DNA of 64,000 nucleotides from the NCBI GenBank assembly GCA_965226375.1, contig CBDDCX010000008.1, positions 704,001-768,000 on the forward strand, read 5' to 3'. Below the pieces are notes generated by a model. The model was not told the origin of the DNA, made no database searches, and saw only the letters and a program-made list of their open reading frames with translations. Position 1 is the first letter of the stretch; each line of letters begins with the position of its first letter. A program made the position numbers and the translations under genes. Positions 23,401 to 29,329 of the stretch are shown here, piece by piece. The DNA comes from Longimicrobiales bacterium. Lineage in GTDB: Bacteria; Gemmatimonadota; Gemmatimonadetes; Longimicrobiales; Gaopeijiaceae.

Positions 23401-24735
23401 ACACAGCGTCGCTCGAAGATCGACGGTGTGGTGTCTCTGGAACGGGTCACGACGGTTATGACGCCGAACGACGAGCTGATCGTAACATCACGCGAGGGGC
23501 AGATCGTGCTCAAGACGGCTGAAGGCCAGATTCGCAGTCGCCTGAGCGTTCCGTACGGTGCGACCCTGGCTGCTGAAGAGGGACAGGTTATCGAGTCCGG
23601 CGACCAGCTCTTCAGCTGGGACCCGTACTCCGAGCCGATCGTGGCCGACTCCGGCGGAGTCGTGAACTTCCTAGACATCGTCGGTGATCAGACCATGCGG
23701 GAAGAGCTCGACGAGTCCACGGGTCGTCGCCAGATGACGATCATTGAAGACAGGAACAAGAAGCTCCACCCAACCATTCAGATCCGGAAAGACACGAAGA
23801 AGGCCGAGAAGCTCCGCGAGTTTATCATCCCCGTGGGAGCCCAGCTTACCGTTCGAGACGGTGAGAAGATCAACCCCGGCGACACGATCGCGAAGATCAG
23901 TCGCGAGGTCTACAAGACCAGGGACATCACCGGTGGCCTTCCCCGTATCGCGGAGCTTTTCGAGGCCCGCCGCCCGAAGGATCCTGCGGTCATCACGGAG
24001 ATCGATGGCACGGTGCGCTTCGGCGACATCAAGCGAGGCAAGCGAGAGGTCATCGTGACGCCTGAGACGGAAGAGGGAGAAGAGAGGGCCTATCCGGTGC
24101 CCGTCGGTAAGCACATGCGGGTGCACGAGGGTGACCGGGTGCGGGCGGGTGACCGTCTGTCCGAGGGTCCGATCAACCCGCATGACATCCTGAAGATCAG
24201 AGGCCCGCGGGCCGTGCAGGAGTACCTGCTCAACGAGATTCAGGAGGTCTACCGACTGCAGGGCGTAAAGATCAACGATAAGCACATCGGTGTGATCGTC
24301 CGGCAGATGCTCCAGAAAGTTCGCATCATCGATCCAGGTGAGACACAGCTGCTCGAGGGAGAGAACGTCGACCGCGTCGAGTTCCGCGAGGTCAACAGCA
24401 AGTCGATCAAGGATGGCAAGAAGCCGGCTCGTTCCGAGCCCTTACTGCTCGGGATCACCAAGGCCAGCCTCACCACCGAGTCGTTCATCTCGGCAGCTTC
24501 CTTCCAGGAGACGACCCGGGTGCTCACGGACGCAGCGGTCCGCGGTGCCAGGGACGACCTGAAGGGACTGAAGGAAAACATCATCATCGGTCACCTCATC
24601 CCGGCCGGTACCGGCATCCATCGTTATCAGGACGTGGAGTTCATGGTCGAGCAGTCGTTCTACGAAGAAGAGATCCTGCCGTTGGCGGATCCGAGTGAGC
24701 TCGTAGCCGGGTTGGAAGAGGTTACTGCGGACTGA
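20440..24735 (+). CDS. rpoC: RNA polymerase beta' subunit
   Basis: [12 protein letters not shown] catalytic motif; Zn finger; SI3-type insertion. Confidence 0.99.
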
Positions 24736-24740
24736 GTAAT

Positions 24741-24836
24741 CGGGGAGAGGCTCGTCGCCTTCCGCTCCGCGCGGACGCTACGCTCTGCGGCGTTGCCGCA
24801 GACCCGCGCTTCGGGAAGGCGACGAGCCTCTCCCCG
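24741..24836 (+). repeat. Palindromic element after rpoC: 23-bp perfect inverted repeat with inner hairpin
   Basis: CGGGGAGAGGCTCGTCGCCTTCC (24741-24763) and its reverse complement (24814-24836); inner CTGCGGC-GTT-GCCGCAG. Confidence 0.85.
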
Positions 24837-24931
24837 GTTGACGGCTTGGGGGCGTCGGGCACCTCTACCGAGGTAGTACCGGCGCTCTCTCGGATCTTCC
24901 ACGTTGGCTTTTAGCGGGGGCGTATAGGTCC

Positions 24932-26134
24932 ATGAAGGGGGTCGATCCTGCGATCGATTTTGTTACCGAAGTTCTGGCGGGGCGTGCGCCGTTTGAACTT
25001 GGACCTGCCGGGCCTGATCGGGATCGGACTCTGGAGCTTCTGGCGTTTCATCGCTTGATCGGGCTCTGGTATGCGGAGGCCCGAGGGTCGGCATCCGATG
25101 AGGCCGGATCGTCTGAGCCTGGGGGCGAGGTGGACTCGGAGTGCCGGGCTCGCCTCAAGGACCAGTACCTTCGGACGGGACTCCACTCCACGCTCGTCCT
25201 CGAGTCTGCTCAACGGGCGGGTGCGGCTCTTTCCCGTGAGGGCATCCGCTCCATCGTGTTCAAGGGTGCGGCGCTCCTGCAGAATGGCACCTACGGGCAG
25301 CCGGCGGCGCGCAGCCTGGACGACACCGACCTGCTGATCCCCGAGGCTGCGGCAGGTGCTGCGGTTCGGGCTTTGCAAGCTGTGGGGTTCGAACCTTGGG
25401 TCGAGTGGGATGAAAACCGTATTGGGTGGCTGCCCGCTTTCACGTTCTCCGACGGTCAGGCGCCGAATGGCATGTCGATCAGCCTCGACCTGCACTGGCG
25501 CACCCCCTACACGTCGTTCCGCAGTGGCTCGGATGAGGAACCCGGGACTTTGTGGGAGGGGGCCGACCTCGAGGCGGGGCTGCCGGCCGAGGAGCCGCAC
25601 TTTCTGCTCCTGGTCGAGCACTTTTTGAAGCACCTGCGTGTCGTGGCGCATGTGAGGGCGCTGGGCGATCTGGTCCGGTCGCTGGATCGTATATCGAAGC
25701 CCGAGCTCCTGGCCGGTCTAGCCGATCGGCGTGGGAGCCTGCGTGGGTTGCGGGTCATGCTGGCCTTTCTCAGGGACGGGTTGCGGGTGCGTGTACCGGG
25801 GGAGGTTCTTTCCGCCGCTGGCGTGCCCGGGAAGATGCCTCGAGCGGCTTCGAAGTTGCTGGATCGATCGCGCCTCTTCGGCACGGAGCCGCCCGTGTCG
25901 GGCGGCCGAATCCACGGGCTGTGGCTCCAGTGGGCCTTCGCAGGATCGCCCTCGGTGATGGTACGTGATGCCTACGACGTGGTGTTGCCCCCCGCGTCCT
26001 GGCTGCGACATCGCTATCCGGAGGTCTCGACCGCATGGAGCCGCCGGCGCCTTCACCATATCAAGACCGTCGCGACCTGGCTGATGGGTCGGGGCGTGTC
26101 GCCCCTTTCTCCGAATCAGGAGTTCGAGGAGTGA
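24932..26134 (+). CDS. Nucleotidyltransferase family protein (NTP_transf_5-like)
   Basis: GIRSIVFKGAALL..TYGQPAARSLDDTDLLI (KG...R..DxDLL) and SLDLHW motifs. Confidence 0.85.
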   Translation: MKGVDPAIDFVTEVLAGRAPFELGPAGPDRDRTLELLAFHRLIGLWYAEARGSASDEAGSSEPGGEVDSECRARLKDQYLRTGLHSTLVLESAQRAGAALSREGIRSIVFKGAALLQNGTYGQPAARSLDDTDLLIPEAAAGAAVRALQAVGFEPWVEWDENRIGWLPAFTFSDGQAPNGMSISLDLHWRTPYTSFRSGSDEEPGTLWEGADLEAGLPAEEPHFLLLVEHFLKHLRVVAHVRALGDLVRSLDRISKPELLAGLADRRGSLRGLRVMLAFLRDGLRVRVPGEVLSAAGVPGKMPRAASKLLDRSRLFGTEPPVSGGRIHGLWLQWAFAGSPSVMVRDAYDVVLPPASWLRHRYPEVSTAWSRRRLHHIKTVATWLMGRGVSPLSPNQEFEE

Positions 26135-27015
26135 GGGTTCGCTTCTCGTTCGAGGGTGCCGAGACCGAGGTCGTTGTCTCGGATCCCGCGCTCGCTCCCT
26201 CAGTGGCGATGCTGTTCCCGGATGGTCGGGTAGAAGAGTTGGTGGAGTCTGGGCTCGGAGCCACGGTCATGCGTGTGACTGCGGGGCCCGCCGGGTACGA
26301 TTTTTTGTCCCACCAGGGTCGTTCGACGTTCGACTCCGTTCCCGATCTCCTCGCGGCAGTGGAGTTCGCTGTTGTGATGGACCTGCTTGCAAAAGATGGT
26401 CGGGGCACTCATCTGCATGCCGCCGCCGCCGTGACCCCGTACGGTGCCATGTTGGTCTCCGGTCCTTCCGGGGCGGGCAAGTCCAGTTTGGCGTTGGCAT
26501 GGTCCTTGGCGGGTTATCCCCTTCTTGGCGACGACGTGGTTCGCTTGGACGAGAATGGCCTCCTCGGGCCCTTCCCAAGGTTGCTCAAGGTCCGCCCAGA
26601 CCTCGTGACGGAACACGGGCTCGCGCTGGCGGCCACGCCGGCGTGGGACCCGGGGAGCGATGAGGCGTGGTTCGACCCGACGACCGCGGGGGGTTGGGCG
26701 TCCGCCGGTTGTCGCGCAGCGCTGGTCGCCCGCATAGAGTATGGTGCCGGAGATAGAGTGCACATCCGAGAGGAAGAGACAGGTGAGGGGCTACGCCTCC
26801 TTCTGGATGCCGTACAGACCACGGGCTTACGCAGGGAGCAGAGTATGGACCGCATCATCGCTCTGTTGGAGGGTGCACGGGTCTTCGCCGTCCGCTTCGG
26901 ATCGTCTTACGAGGCGGCCCGTGAACTGGCCGAGATGGTCGGGGGGGGTGGGTTGGCCGGGGAGGATGTGGTTCCGCCGGTTCGGGATGATCCCGCGTCT
27001 GGAATCGAACCGTGA
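26131..27015 (+). CDS. HPr kinase-like P-loop kinase
   Basis: GTG overlaps the upstream TGA; HLHAAA, Walker A GPSGAGKS and YPLLGDDVV HprK signature. Confidence 0.85.
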   Translation: MRVRFSFEGAETEVVVSDPALAPSVAMLFPDGRVEELVESGLGATVMRVTAGPAGYDFLSHQGRSTFDSVPDLLAAVEFAVVMDLLAKDGRGTHLHAAAAVTPYGAMLVSGPSGAGKSSLALAWSLAGYPLLGDDVVRLDENGLLGPFPRLLKVRPDLVTEHGLALAATPAWDPGSDEAWFDPTTAGGWASAGCRAALVARIEYGAGDRVHIREEETGEGLRLLLDAVQTTGLRREQSMDRIIALLEGARVFAVRFGSSYEAARELAEMVGGGGLAGEDVVPPVRDDPASGIEP

Positions 27016-27302
27016 CGGAGTCCGCCGTCCCCCTCGAGGCCGATCACCCCAGAGCGAGGGAAGACGCTGTCTTCCGATCGCTCGGGAGGGAGTGGGTCAT
27101 CTACGATCCCCGTACCCGGCTCCTGCATGTGCTCAATACGACAGCTGCTCTGGTATGGTCTTTCTGCGACGGCACGAGGTCCCCGGAAGAGATTGCCCAT
27201 GAGCTGACCGGCGTGCTGACCGACCTCCCCTCCGAGAATCTCGTGGTCGACCAAGTGCGCGAAGCGCTCAACGGGTTCCGCGAGCAGGGGTTGCTCGTTT
27301 GA
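27012..27302 (+). CDS. Stand-alone PqqD family protein / RiPP recognition element
   Basis: 96 aa; EWVIYDP...HVLNTTAALVWSFCDGTRSPEEIA...FREQGLL pattern. Confidence 0.9.
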   Translation: MTESAVPLEADHPRAREDAVFRSLGREWVIYDPRTRLLHVLNTTAALVWSFCDGTRSPEEIAHELTGVLTDLPSENLVVDQVREALNGFREQGLLV

Positions 27303-28255
27303 GCGTGCTCTACTACGCGGGCCTGCTGGGTTACTCGAATCGTATCGATGCGTTTCAGGGGGCGATCCAGGAGGGCGTGCGCCCCGGTGACCGGGTTCTC
27401 GATGTCAGGACCGGGCTCGGGACTTTCGCCTTTTTCGCCGCTCGGTCCGGGGCGCGCTCCGTGGCCGCCGTCGATTCGAGCCCCGTCGTTCACCTGGCGG
27501 AGGCCCTCGCTGCCGCCAACGGCCTGGCCGACCAAATGGAGTTCGTAAGGGGATCATTGCCCCAGGTCTCCCTCGAGGGCGAGTTCGACGTCATCATCTT
27601 CGAGGACTTTCCGACTCCGTTTCTCGATCGGCCCACCTTCGCACTGCTCGAGACCCTTCAGGAGGAGCATCTCTCCCACGGTGGACGGATGATCCCCCGC
27701 TCCGCCCGCATGCACCTGGCTCCCGTTCAGTCACGGTCCGTCCACGACGCGACCTTTCCGCTGGACGAGTTGGACCTCGATCGTTTCGACCTCGACTGGA
27801 GTGGCGTTCGACCGTTCCTGGCCAACACACCTCGGCGCGTAGACCTGAGACCCGAAGACATTCAGGGTGAGGCGGTGTGCGGAGCTCCGATGCCTTTGGA
27901 CCCCGTACCGATGGCGGCGGCGCTTCGAGTAGAGGGAAGCTGGAGCGCGGGGGAGCCGGGAGTCGTACATGGGCTGGCGCTGTGGTTCGATCTCGAGGTC
28001 CACGAAGGGGGTTGGATCTCCAATGCGCCAAAGGCGGAGCCGGAGCCCTGGGGGCAGTGGCTTCTGCCTGTCGATCCGCTGCTCGAGGTCGCCGCCGGCC
28101 AGACGCTTTATGCGTCGGTCTGGCGCGAGGCTCTGGAGGATGGCGGTCCCGGGTGGTTGGCATGGGAGTGCCGCGTGGAAGATGACATTCGAACGGGGCA
28201 CGAATTTGCGGGTAGGTTGGCAGGACCGGAGGATCTGGCGGGCTCCGGATCGTGA
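27299..28255 (+). CDS. PRMT-fold (protein arginine methyltransferase-like) SAM-dependent methyltransferase
   Basis: R.DAFQGAI helix; motif I VLDVRTGLG, VAAVD, FDVIIFE and GRMIP; beta-barrel HGLALWFD...ISNAP...PWGQ. Confidence 0.8.
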   Translation: MSVLYYAGLLGYSNRIDAFQGAIQEGVRPGDRVLDVRTGLGTFAFFAARSGARSVAAVDSSPVVHLAEALAAANGLADQMEFVRGSLPQVSLEGEFDVIIFEDFPTPFLDRPTFALLETLQEEHLSHGGRMIPRSARMHLAPVQSRSVHDATFPLDELDLDRFDLDWSGVRPFLANTPRRVDLRPEDIQGEAVCGAPMPLDPVPMAAALRVEGSWSAGEPGVVHGLALWFDLEVHEGGWISNAPKAEPEPWGQWLLPVDPLLEVAAGQTLYASVWREALEDGGPGWLAWECRVEDDIRTGHEFAGRLAGPEDLAGSGS

Positions 28256-28316
28256 GTTCGGCAGTCCGGCTGGATTTGCGATACCAAAGGCGCTGTCGAC
28301 TACGAAGTCACAGGAG

Positions 28317-28344
28317 TTGACATTCCATCGAGCGTTCGTAGACC
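28317..28344 (+). promoter_or_regulatory. Possible sigma70 promoter for the small peptide gene
   Basis: Perfect TTGACA at 28317; TAGACC 16 nt downstream. Confidence 0.35.
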
Positions 28345-28417
28345 TTTGTAGAGTAGGTGTGTCTGTGTTGGCCAATCACTCATTGGTGCACGCTTGAACC
28401 CCGCAAGGAGAGAGGCC

Positions 28418-28645
28418 GTGGAAGACAGACGCAATTTCTTGCTCAAAGTGGCCACGGGCGTTGCTTACTCTGCGCCGGTGATCCGGACGCTCGCATCGCC
28501 GCCCGCCCTCCTCGCCCAGGGGGGTGAGAGTGAAACGACCCAGAAAGGGGGCCAGGGCATGGAGATGGGCATGCTGGTCATTCAGAGCCCGGAGCCGCCG
28601 ACGACGACCAGTACCGCTCCCTGGGCCAAGAAGCCCGGAGGGTGA
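28418..28645 (+). CDS. Putative RiPP precursor peptide with twin-arginine leader (75 aa)
   Basis: AGGAGAGAGG RBS then GTG; MEDRRNFLLKVATGVAYSAPVIRTLASPPALLA-QGGESETTQKGG...PTTTSTAPWAKKPGG; directly after the RRE/kinase/NTase/MTase genes. Confidence 0.7.
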   Translation: MEDRRNFLLKVATGVAYSAPVIRTLASPPALLAQGGESETTQKGGQGMEMGMLVIQSPEPPTTTSTAPWAKKPGG

Positions 28646-28802
28646 GACCCCACGAACGCCGTTCTGGAGCCCACGGGTAACAGCCCCTTCGCCGGCTCGC
28701 CCACAGGCTTCAGCCACCCTCCCTTCTTCTCCCGAACACCTGCAGCCCGCCCTACCCCATAAACCCTCCGGCTGAAGCGGGTTTTCAGGGTGCCCGACCC
28801 CG

Positions 28803-28831
28803 TTGACACCCCCTAGGGCCTCTTTTAACTT
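28803..28831 (+). promoter_or_regulatory. sigma70 promoter of the str operon
   Basis: TTGACA-N17-TAACTT upstream of rpsL. Confidence 0.6.
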
Positions 28832-28896
28832 TCCAAGTCTTTCCCGGAGATGCGCCGAAGCGTCGGTGACTCCGGCTCCGAAACCGCGCTAGAACC

Positions 28897-28935
28897 CGCG
28901 CCTTGAGGGTGCGTCATGAGGCGCGTTTTTTTTTT
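28897..28935 (+). terminator. Terminator-like hairpin with T10 tract in the rpsL leader
   Basis: CGCGCCT...AGGCGCG followed by TTTTTTTTTT. Confidence 0.55.
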
Positions 28936-28957
28936 GACGACATGAACCTGGGCTGAC

Positions 28958-29329
28958 ATGCCTACGATCAACCAACTCGTTCGCAAGGGACGTCGCGAGC
29001 TTCAGAAGAAGAACAAGTCCCCTGCATTGCAGAAGAACCCTCAGAAGAGAGGGGTCTGCACCCGTGTGTATACCACCACTCCCAAGAAGCCGAATTCGGC
29101 TCTTCGGAAGGTGGCCAGGGTGCGGCTGACCAACGGGTATGAAGTGACGTCATACATCGGGGGCGAAGGACACAACCTCCAGGAGCACTCGATCGTGCTC
29201 ATTCGAGGTGGCCGGGTGAAGGACTTGCCTGGCGTGCGATACCATGTCGTCCGGGGAACCCTGGACGCATCCGGTGTCAGCGATCGGCGCCAGGGTCGGT
29301 CCAAGTACGGCGCCAAGAGACCTAAGTAG
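28958..29329 (+). CDS. rpsL: 30S ribosomal protein S12
   Basis: [11 protein letters not shown] and [10 protein letters not shown]. Confidence 0.99.

Follow-up and report, generated by a model that had tools for sequence, protein, structure and literature searches.

How would a short peptide encoded beside modification genes be recognised, modified and released? This question is raised by the window (the whole 64,000-nucleotide stretch of DNA that was analysed), which carries the rpoB-rpoC-rpsL region. Five genes, all in one orientation, separate rpoC from rpsL, namely those for a nucleotidyltransferase, an HprK-like kinase, a PqqD/RRE protein and a methyltransferase and a 75-codon ORF, and the same five-gene order was found in two same-genus genomes. 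An earlier note on this DNA had read the ORF as a precursor peptide gene whose leader doubles as a Tat signal with an embedded RRE-type motif, and had proposed that Tat export plus signal peptidase replace a dedicated protease and transporter. The evidence for the gene, for each leader motif and for the route out of the cell is presented here.

The precursor gene and its flanking signals

The ORF, motifs, counts and coordinates of the earlier note are all present in the sequence, among them the upstream TTGACA and a predicted core of 42 residues with 9 Ser/Thr and 3 Lys and with neither Cys nor Arg (Table 1). Within the precursor, DRRNFLLK occupies residues 3-10, YSAPVI residues 17-22 and LLA|Q residues 31-34. 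Twelve close homologues of the 75-residue peptide were identified, with identities of 53-99%, and a profile search of 50%-identity cluster representatives returned 109 hits at E<=0.001, including three long unrelated proteins and one read-through. For the family alignment 110 peptides were aligned, of which 109 were anchored. Dropped before counting were the near duplicates P0005-P0008, the long unrelated P0016, P0028 and P0063, the truncated P0017, the frameshifted P0021, the read-through P0115 and P0119, which was not anchored. The earlier note had rested its proposal on conservation of the ORF, of RR and of the Y/P motif; homologues were found, with RR in 105/109 and YxxPx[ILVM] in 103/109 anchored members. 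Because the homologues were gathered with a profile that contained the leader motifs, these motif counts are partly selected, and a search that began from the RRE, described below, served as an independent check.

Table 1. Features between rpoC and rpsL, in window coordinates.
Feature	Position	Strand	Basis
Nucleotidyltransferase (NTP_transf_5)	24932..26134	+	PF14907 E 4e-20; 15/32 loci
HprK-like kinase	26131..27015	+	TIGR04352 E 3e-7, below cut-off; 23/32 loci; longest ORF starts at 26035, alignment favours 26131
Stand-alone PqqD-type RRE	27012..27302	+	PF05402 E 2e-9; 22/32 loci
PRMT-fold SAM methyltransferase	27299..28255	+	profile E 4e-47 to PRMT6; 21/32 loci
TTGACA, possible -35 hexamer	28317..28322	+	kept in same-genus loci; sigma-70 scan 0 sites
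Shine-Dalgarno-like AAGGAG	28405..28410	+	sequence; 7 nt 5' of precursor GTG
Precursor peptide gene, 75 aa	28418..28645	+	GTG start, stop 28643-28645; homologues; RNA-library contigs
Twin-arginine-type motif D3-K10	28424..28447	+	family conservation; TatP default pattern
RRE recognition sequence Y17-x-x-P20-x-I22, plus nonamer P20-P28 common to RRE-fused relatives	28466..28501	+	family alignment
Predicted signal peptidase I site P28(-6), L31(-3), A33(-1) | Q34(+1)	28499..28519	+	pattern P..[LAVIT].[AGS]
Predicted 42-residue core: Ser/Thr-rich start, Gly/Met middle, Pro/Thr linker, PW tail	28517..28642	+	alignment
S38-K43, ending in conserved [ST]-x-K (T41-Q42-K43): likely kinase site, candidate methylation site	28529..28546	+	function inferred
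Conserved C-terminal tail S65-G75	28610..28642	+	STAPW and PW conservation

When the leader DNA was compared with that of two congeners, 18/29 and 17/28 of the differences fell at third codon positions, a bias which indicates that the precursor ORF is coding. A six-frame search with RR.F...Y.[AVT]P.[ILV] gave four matches in the 4.2-Mb genome, and the precursor alone was a full family member; the precursor profile likewise found one copy in the genome. A scan of genome contigs confirmed 1 of 109 pattern matches. The precursor was present in 10/41 relatives and, with 14 candidates scored per genome, in 20/401 genomes of the phylum, two of these weak. An unpublished genome (G025) is counted in both tallies, as well as in the counts of 32 loci (as L070), 33 peptides scored for a promoter and 20 RRE loci (as L120) given below, and underlies no alignment or conclusion.

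Within one study, two metatranscriptome runs yielded contigs that match positions 28398-28602 and 28519-28679 at 99-100% identity, a weak sign of transcription. Among the contig pieces listed for X17 and X20, long near-identical ones are absent over the enzyme genes and few over the ribosomal operon. The organism is rare in these runs, which were found using the precursor stretch itself and belong to one study, so the coverage neither ranks the genes nor shows a higher expression of the precursor. Two hits came from a homology search started with L072, a variant with short spacing, and no NCBIfam model matched the precursor peptide. Hits of the precursor in the ESM Atlas all scored under 0.9, with Tat-signal clusters among them, and were treated as leads only. 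In one congener the peptide gene (L017:8001-8211, the same place as L021) carries a one-base frameshift just past the cut site; the near-identical protein P0004 is intact, so this frameshift is probably an assembly error. Taken together, these observations confirmed that the precursor gene and its dual-motif leader are real.

The earlier note had also suggested a possible promoter for the precursor itself. TTGACA lies about 110 nt 5' of the RR codons in all three same-genus rpoC-rpsL loci, where the DNA has otherwise diverged, and within 260 nt upstream in 6/33 loci overall; its rate in the genome is 0.09 per kb. A sigma-70 scan of 24600-29100 returned no sites, and no -10 consensus emerged 3' of 389 genomic TTGACA sites. 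The conserved -35 hexamer thus stands without a consensus -10 element, and a separate promoter for the precursor is plausible. Neither a terminator-like site nor an unusual RNA fold was detected 3' of the precursor (fold z -0.72). Upstream of rpsL, positions 28804-28832 read by eye as TTGACA, 17 nt and TAACTT. This element, absent from the scan output, is likely a promoter that restarts transcription after the inserted cassette.

Leader motifs, the RRE and the Tat question

The family leader follows the consensus [DSNT]-R-R-x-F-L-[KLR]-[KR]-[LVI]-A-[KR]-G-x-x-Y-x-A-P-[VL]-[IV]-x-[TS]-L-x-x-P-x-x-[LAV]-x-[AG], and then Q. Counted from a core that begins at Q34, Y17, P20 and I22 fall at -17, -14 and -12, and lasso leaders are described with Y(-17)/P(-14)/L(-12) (PMC10368454). 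The class of RRE recognition motifs is given elsewhere as W/Y/LxxPx[LIV] (PMC12710340). The top named solved relatives of the adjoining RRE are the lasso B1 proteins TfuB1 and TbiB1.

The search that began from the RRE was positive in 74/401 genomes of the phylum, and 20 RRE loci, none of them used before, were inspected. In ten of these, RRE, leader and core are fused, giving 12 proteins in all; in three (L103, L104, L108) an unfused RR peptide adjoins the RRE or the kinase; in four the RRE lies close to or at the end of its contig, and in three no peptide was seen. Fusion of the RRE to the leader is good evidence that the two are partners. The fused family comprises 714 hits and 29-30 Atlas clusters, with Acidobacteriota commonest. 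Among the best 120 of the 714 proteins, 118 keep P-V-[VI]-x-[ST]-[IL]-x-x-P, a motif that the anchor itself required; the other two were not anchored and were left out. RR is present in 117 of the 118, at a median residue of 103 behind the folded RRE, and Phe follows at +3 in 1/117. Ser/Thr occurs after the site in all 118, and the cores mostly have at least four Cys. The Tyr of the YxxP motif is replaced by Leu, Ile or Val, a substitution described for the RRE recognition motif class (PMC12710340).

Free and fused leaders were aligned by hhalign with a probability of 86.5 and an E value of 4.6e-6. The fused-leader profile scored at least 10 bits in 86/110 free peptides, 0/550 shuffles and 6/39 of the genome's own Tat signals, and the shared nonamer was found in 104/110 free peptides and 0/39 of those signals. 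These profile comparisons relate free and fused leaders more closely than a general resemblance to Tat signals would. In an AlphaFold2 model of one fused protein the nonamer segment forms a strand (E122-126; block pLDDT 73; no contacts given), and in a Foldseek search with the fused model the RRE part alone was matched (best E 1e-3). Complex prediction for the RRE and leader residues 1-36 scored 0.68, but one control reached 0.51, and the prediction was given no weight for or against binding. The lasso register, the lasso-B1-like RRE next door and the RRE-leader fusions agree with the assignment of YSAPVI as an RRE-type motif in the earlier note, and recognition of the leader by the RRE is well supported as a prediction.

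The fused proteins from the RRE search (L107:5780-6307, L109, L110, L112-L115 and L117-L119) have an internal RR and mostly Cys-rich cores, and their loci adjoin HprK-like kinase and NTase genes. Locus L114 has three tandem copies, and the L109 fusion, which lies among IS elements, has three residues after the site. In L115 and L117, Ser/Thr/Pro-rich fused cores lie beside two glycosyltransferase genes (PF11397, PF00535), which suggests that these products may be glycosylated. No MauE/thioredoxin gene was found beside fused forms among 42 neighbours scanned.

The first part of the leader agrees with the twin-arginine motif proposed earlier. The peptides without RR have RK (three) or DR (one); F is kept in 101/109, S/T/D/N precedes RR in 101/109, and RR lies no more than 35 residues from the start in 107/109. 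The TatP default pattern was matched by 105/109, and this pattern by itself has been reported to give 15% false positives on cytoplasmic RR proteins (PMC1182353). The ALLA|Q of the earlier note is also compatible with a predicted signal-peptidase-I-like site at A33|Q34: Pro at -6, an aliphatic residue at -3 and a small residue at -1 (P..[LAVIT].[AGS]) were found together in 102/109 members. At single positions, A/G/S occurs at -1 in 106/109 and Pro at -6 in 105/109, and position -2 is free (3.4 bits). Leu stands at -3 in 74/109, exact Ala-x-Ala was found in 10/109, and Gln follows at +1 in 82/109.

The hydrophobic segment is less typical. In the query, the uncharged stretch between K10 and R23 is 12 residues long; the median is 14 in the family and 16 in the 39 Tat signals that belong to the genome itself (p 9e-5). 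An uncharged run of at least 13 residues, which we take to be the h-region threshold of TatFind, was found in 30/39 of those signals and 72/109 family members. Peak 12-residue hydropathy was similar, at 1.47 versus 1.61 in the genome's own Tat signals (p 0.07). Lys or Arg occupies RR+9 in 83/109 members, and with the short uncharged run this makes the segment after RR read as an amphipathic helix. The query matched none of the Tat HMMs PF10518, TIGR01409 and TIGR02811; at E<=0.5, matches across the family were 6/110, 20/110 and 49/110, respectively.

The genome encodes TatC, two TatA/B proteins and two S26 (LepB-type) peptidases. TatC was found in 33/34 carrier genomes, the one miss being 78% complete, a count that covers carriers only and so discriminates little. 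In membrane-tethered substrates, Tat is able to recognise an RR that lies internally (PMC5449189). Tat is also described as exporting short unstructured hydrophilic chains, an export that a short hydrophobic stretch brought to a halt (PMC6708511). One short stretch of this kind, MLVI, occurs in the core and by analogy would count against its Tat export; the RR of the fused relatives, about 100 residues inside and lacking Phe, would also count against Tat. In favour of the Tat export proposed earlier are the motif with its tolerated RK variants, its N-terminal position, the cut pattern after a leader of 33 residues, the HMM matches across the family, the peak hydropathy, the missing dedicated genes and the presence of TatA and TatC; the short charged h-region, the lack of an HMM hit for the query, the rarity of exact Ala-x-Ala, the hydrophobic run in the core and the internal RR in the fusions speak against it. 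On balance, Tat export with cleavage at A33|Q34 is judged rather likely.

Cassette enzymes, core and proposed mechanism

The neighbourhoods of 32 family members were compared; all are from Gemmatimonadota genomes, and several end at contig ends. Annotation covered the recurrent clusters and the closest single neighbours, 121 of 518 called proteins. Six of the 32 loci have a peptide and no cassette gene in the fetched DNA, and four of these are extra copies with a cassette elsewhere in the genome (G001, G002, G022, G411). No conserved peptidase, cyclase or exporter was found among the 121 annotated neighbours across the 32 loci, which bears out the missing dedicated protease and transporter of the earlier note in a genome that has TatA, TatC and two LepB-type peptidases. 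A shared dedicated peptidase was rejected as a candidate, with S51 in 2/32, M14 in 3/32, M28 in 2/32 and S9 in 1/32 loci. An ABC exporter directly follows the peptide in one locus (L057; 1/32), and three loci have an efflux operon nearby. In the 90%-complete genome the archaeal-type SpI model TIGR02228 had no matches, lasso B2 (PF13471) was matched only below cut-off, and PF00733 gave two partial hits, both outside the cassette. A second, weaker PqqD match lies inside a 516-codon frame elsewhere (G000:C8:1171635-1171802).

The Walker-A motif of the kinase, G-x-x-G-x-G-K, is invariant, and the RRE consensus includes an acidic DDEW stretch. The methyltransferase match to the PRMT6 profile spans 280 positions, with PRMT_C at E 1e-5. 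Among the PRMT hallmarks, which we take to be two arginine-binding glutamates and a Thr-His-Trp loop, the first Glu (E102) and the Trp are invariant in 18/18 homologues, and the second Glu and Thr-His are not kept. Because the first Glu is kept and the second is missing, the target may not be arginine. In the window, codon 27407-27409 specifies Arg where the SAM motif would have its first Gly; Gly is present in one DNA run and Arg in another, which indicates that the Arg allele is real, as a strain polymorphism, and the enzyme with this allele may be impaired. The C-terminal tail weakly matches an RRE profile in 9/18 methyltransferase homologues (E 0.002-0.07; TIGR03859 E 6e-4 in one). Such an RRE-like helical tail, in the last 60-90 residues, was noted in L053-L055, L058, L059 and L064-L067, and the window copy lacks it.

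The core is of low complexity and ranges from 3 to 95 residues across the family. Ser/Thr was found within the first eight core residues in 105/109 peptides (shuffle mean 73, max 87), and [ST]xK in 61/109 (shuffle mean 7, max 18). With L021 excluded, [ST]xK was found in 13/20 peptides beside a methyltransferase versus 0/5 without one, a comparison of kin that are not independent and hence a lead only. At the other end, STAPW is invariant in 12/12 close homologues and PW is kept in 83/109 (shuffle mean 18); S65-T66 is invariant only among close homologues. The earlier expectation of a conserved leader and a variable core was thus correct for the leader, but the core has a conserved start and tail. 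The TTTST run, which had been put forward as a plausible kinase target, was rejected as a family-wide site, since a Ser/Thr run of at least three occurs in only 23/109 peptides versus early Ser/Thr in 105/109. Conservation of the PW tail suggests that the product may have a binding partner, and pyroglutamate at Q34 is possible. Some cores are rich in His or Met (at least three His in 7/109, at least four Met in 41/109), L065, L066, L055 and L061 among them, a composition that might let them bind metals. In the neighbourhood of L065, L066 and L071 are an ECF sigma factor and an efflux operon.

From these comparisons we somewhat favour a model in which the precursor is a RiPP whose leader has two jobs, being bound by the RRE through YxxPxI and targeted to Tat before it is cut by signal peptidase I. 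The RRE would very probably bind Y17, P20 and I22 as a beta strand. The HprK-like kinase would then probably phosphorylate Ser/Thr near the core start, at S38, T40 or T41; these are favoured over TTTST because the related kinases BsfK and LppK phosphorylate core Ser3. It is more speculative that the nucleotidyltransferase would extend the phosphate and the PRMT-fold enzyme methylate a core residue, with K43 as the best candidate. Tat export and the cut at A33|Q34, with the likelihood given above, would release a linear 42-mer.

The twin arginines could also be explained without export. The RR helix might provide a docking site for the kinase, for the methyltransferase or for the RRE's acidic face, and merely mimic a Tat signal, the peptide being modified in the cytoplasm and leaving, if at all, by an unlinked route. 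The charged amphipathic segment after RR, with its frequent K/R at +9 (83/109), the acidic DDEW stretch in the RRE consensus and the absence of a Tat HMM hit for the query are consistent with docking, as is the RR kept without Phe about 100 residues inside the fused proteins; with a PRMT-fold neighbour and a core without Arg, the leader arginines could even be the substrate. However, RR is kept in all five loci without a methyltransferase and in 117/118 fused forms, most of them with at least four core Cys, and the methyltransferase lacks the second arginine-binding Glu. Docking also leaves unexplained both the cut-site pattern of Pro at -6, an aliphatic residue at -3, a free -2 position and a small residue at -1, found in 102/109, and the missing conserved protease and exporter. 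We regard docking as a doubtful alternative, at roughly one chance in four.

Two further explanations accept part of the two-job model. If the leader engaged Tat and was not cut at A33|Q34, it would serve as a membrane anchor or be cut elsewhere, and the inner membrane would carry the modified tail on its outer face. The prevalence of Leu at -3 (74/109), the rarity of exact Ala-x-Ala (10/109) and a long Pro/Gly/Thr linker before the PW tail, which would suit a tethered ligand, fit such an anchor, but a stable transmembrane helix would need a longer and less charged h-region, and the near-constant A/G/S at -1 (106/109) and Pro at -6 (105/109) argue for a cut; we consider an anchor improbable. 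Less probable still is that the cassette enzymes act mainly on other proteins, the peptide being a minor or relict substrate, or a companion that is secreted unmodified. Peptides without a cassette gene in the fetched DNA (6/32 loci), low-complexity cores of 3 to 95 residues and the damaged SAM motif of this strain's methyltransferase would be expected under that explanation, yet four of the six loci are extra copies with a cassette elsewhere, the leader nonamer is found in 0/39 other Tat signals of the genome, and the RRE-leader fusions tie the RRE and leader together.

A stronger form of the two-job model, which we advance tentatively and think unlikely to hold in full, is that the RRE grips the Tat signal's h-region and thereby gates export. 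The precursor would be kept in the cytoplasm until phosphorylated, nucleotidylated and methylated, and would then pass to Tat and signal peptidase I. Read in this way, the family might be a widespread undescribed RiPP class, with a PRMT-fold enzyme whose non-arginine target is [ST]-x-K/H/M, and the RRE-fused branch might be the same device in one chain, its chaperone left inside the cell. If true, an RRE site inside a Tat signal would show how a peptide can be modified first and exported later without dedicated genes, and would provide substrates for many orphan RRE/HprK/nucleotidyltransferase cassettes. It would also give a bacterial PRMT-fold enzyme a substrate that is small and defined, and offer a portable tag for secreting modified peptides. 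Release of RiPPs through a general pathway is established for Sec by the bufferins, whose authors consider bulky modifications poorly suited to Sec (PMC11626156), and the use of Tat to display lanthipeptides has been tried without success (PMC5686179).

Comparison with known systems

The literature searched contained no account of the precursor family or of an RRE leader of the Tat type, and the supplements of two papers (PMC12710340, PMC13381572) may list such clusters. A review of RiPP leader proteases makes no mention of Tat or signal peptidase (PMC10885120), and the RRE-Finder passages searched do not describe the cassette (PMC7470986). The best NCBIfam hits of the kinase and the RRE are to the HPr-rel-A system (TIGR04352, TIGR04353), both below cut-off (29.9 of 200 bits and 23.4 of 35 bits, respectively).

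Bufferins and oxazolins resemble the precursor in using general export and a housekeeping signal peptidase without dedicated genes. In contrast, bufferins are described as using Sec and other enzymes, with a signal peptide dispensable for modification (PMC11626156), whereas the precursor has its RRE motif inside the signal.

The phosphorylated lasso peptides, paeninodin, pseudomycoidin and Bradymonas bsf (PMC8498205, PMC10368454), share with the cassette a B1-type RRE, a kinase, a nucleotidyltransferase and the -17/-14/-12 register. BsfK is reported to phosphorylate Ser3, helped by the RRE (PMC10368454). Unlike these systems, the cassette has no lasso cyclase or B2 peptidase. Thr(-2), described as needed by B2 peptidases, is found in 6/109 family members, the query having Leu at -2, and the Asp/Glu of lasso core positions 7-9 is absent from the query, which has T-T-Q there. 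Membership among lasso peptides was rejected on these grounds.

The closest known family is that of the linear polyphosphorylated peptides (LPP; PMC13381572, 2026), described from Paenibacillus alginolyticus with the genes lppA-K-B-S-D-N. Both systems have a separate RRE, a kinase of HprK-like type and an NTP transferase, and both lack a cyclase. An LPP has a YxxPx[VI] leader and a linear Ser-phosphorylated core, LppK phosphorylating core Ser3, and its YxxP leader is cut and removed by a signal-peptidase-I-type enzyme (PMC13381572); the same design is proposed for the precursor. However, LPP clusters are reported to encode an archaeal-type SpI (LppS) and an MsbA-like exporter, and neither is conserved at the precursor loci. 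The LPP leader reads YxxPxVLxHQxIxFETxxS, of which the precursor leader shares only YxxPx[IV], without HQxIxFET. The precursor leader begins with an RR motif, whereas 'Tat' is never mentioned in the LPP main text (PMC13381572). The precursor is further set apart by its PRMT-fold enzyme and by its occurrence in Gemmatimonadota, LPP being described from Bacillota. Membership in LPP was rejected, given no S26 gene among the annotated neighbours, no TIGR02228 match in the genome, an MsbA-like exporter in 1/32 loci (L057) and a leader motif that is mostly absent. The product is likely a modified peptide exported and clipped by general Tat and signal peptidase machinery, a route that we found described for no other modified peptide. 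Judged from its alignments, of the two halves of a lasso leader the precursor family keeps the one for the RRE, with signal-peptidase-like determinants replacing those for B2.
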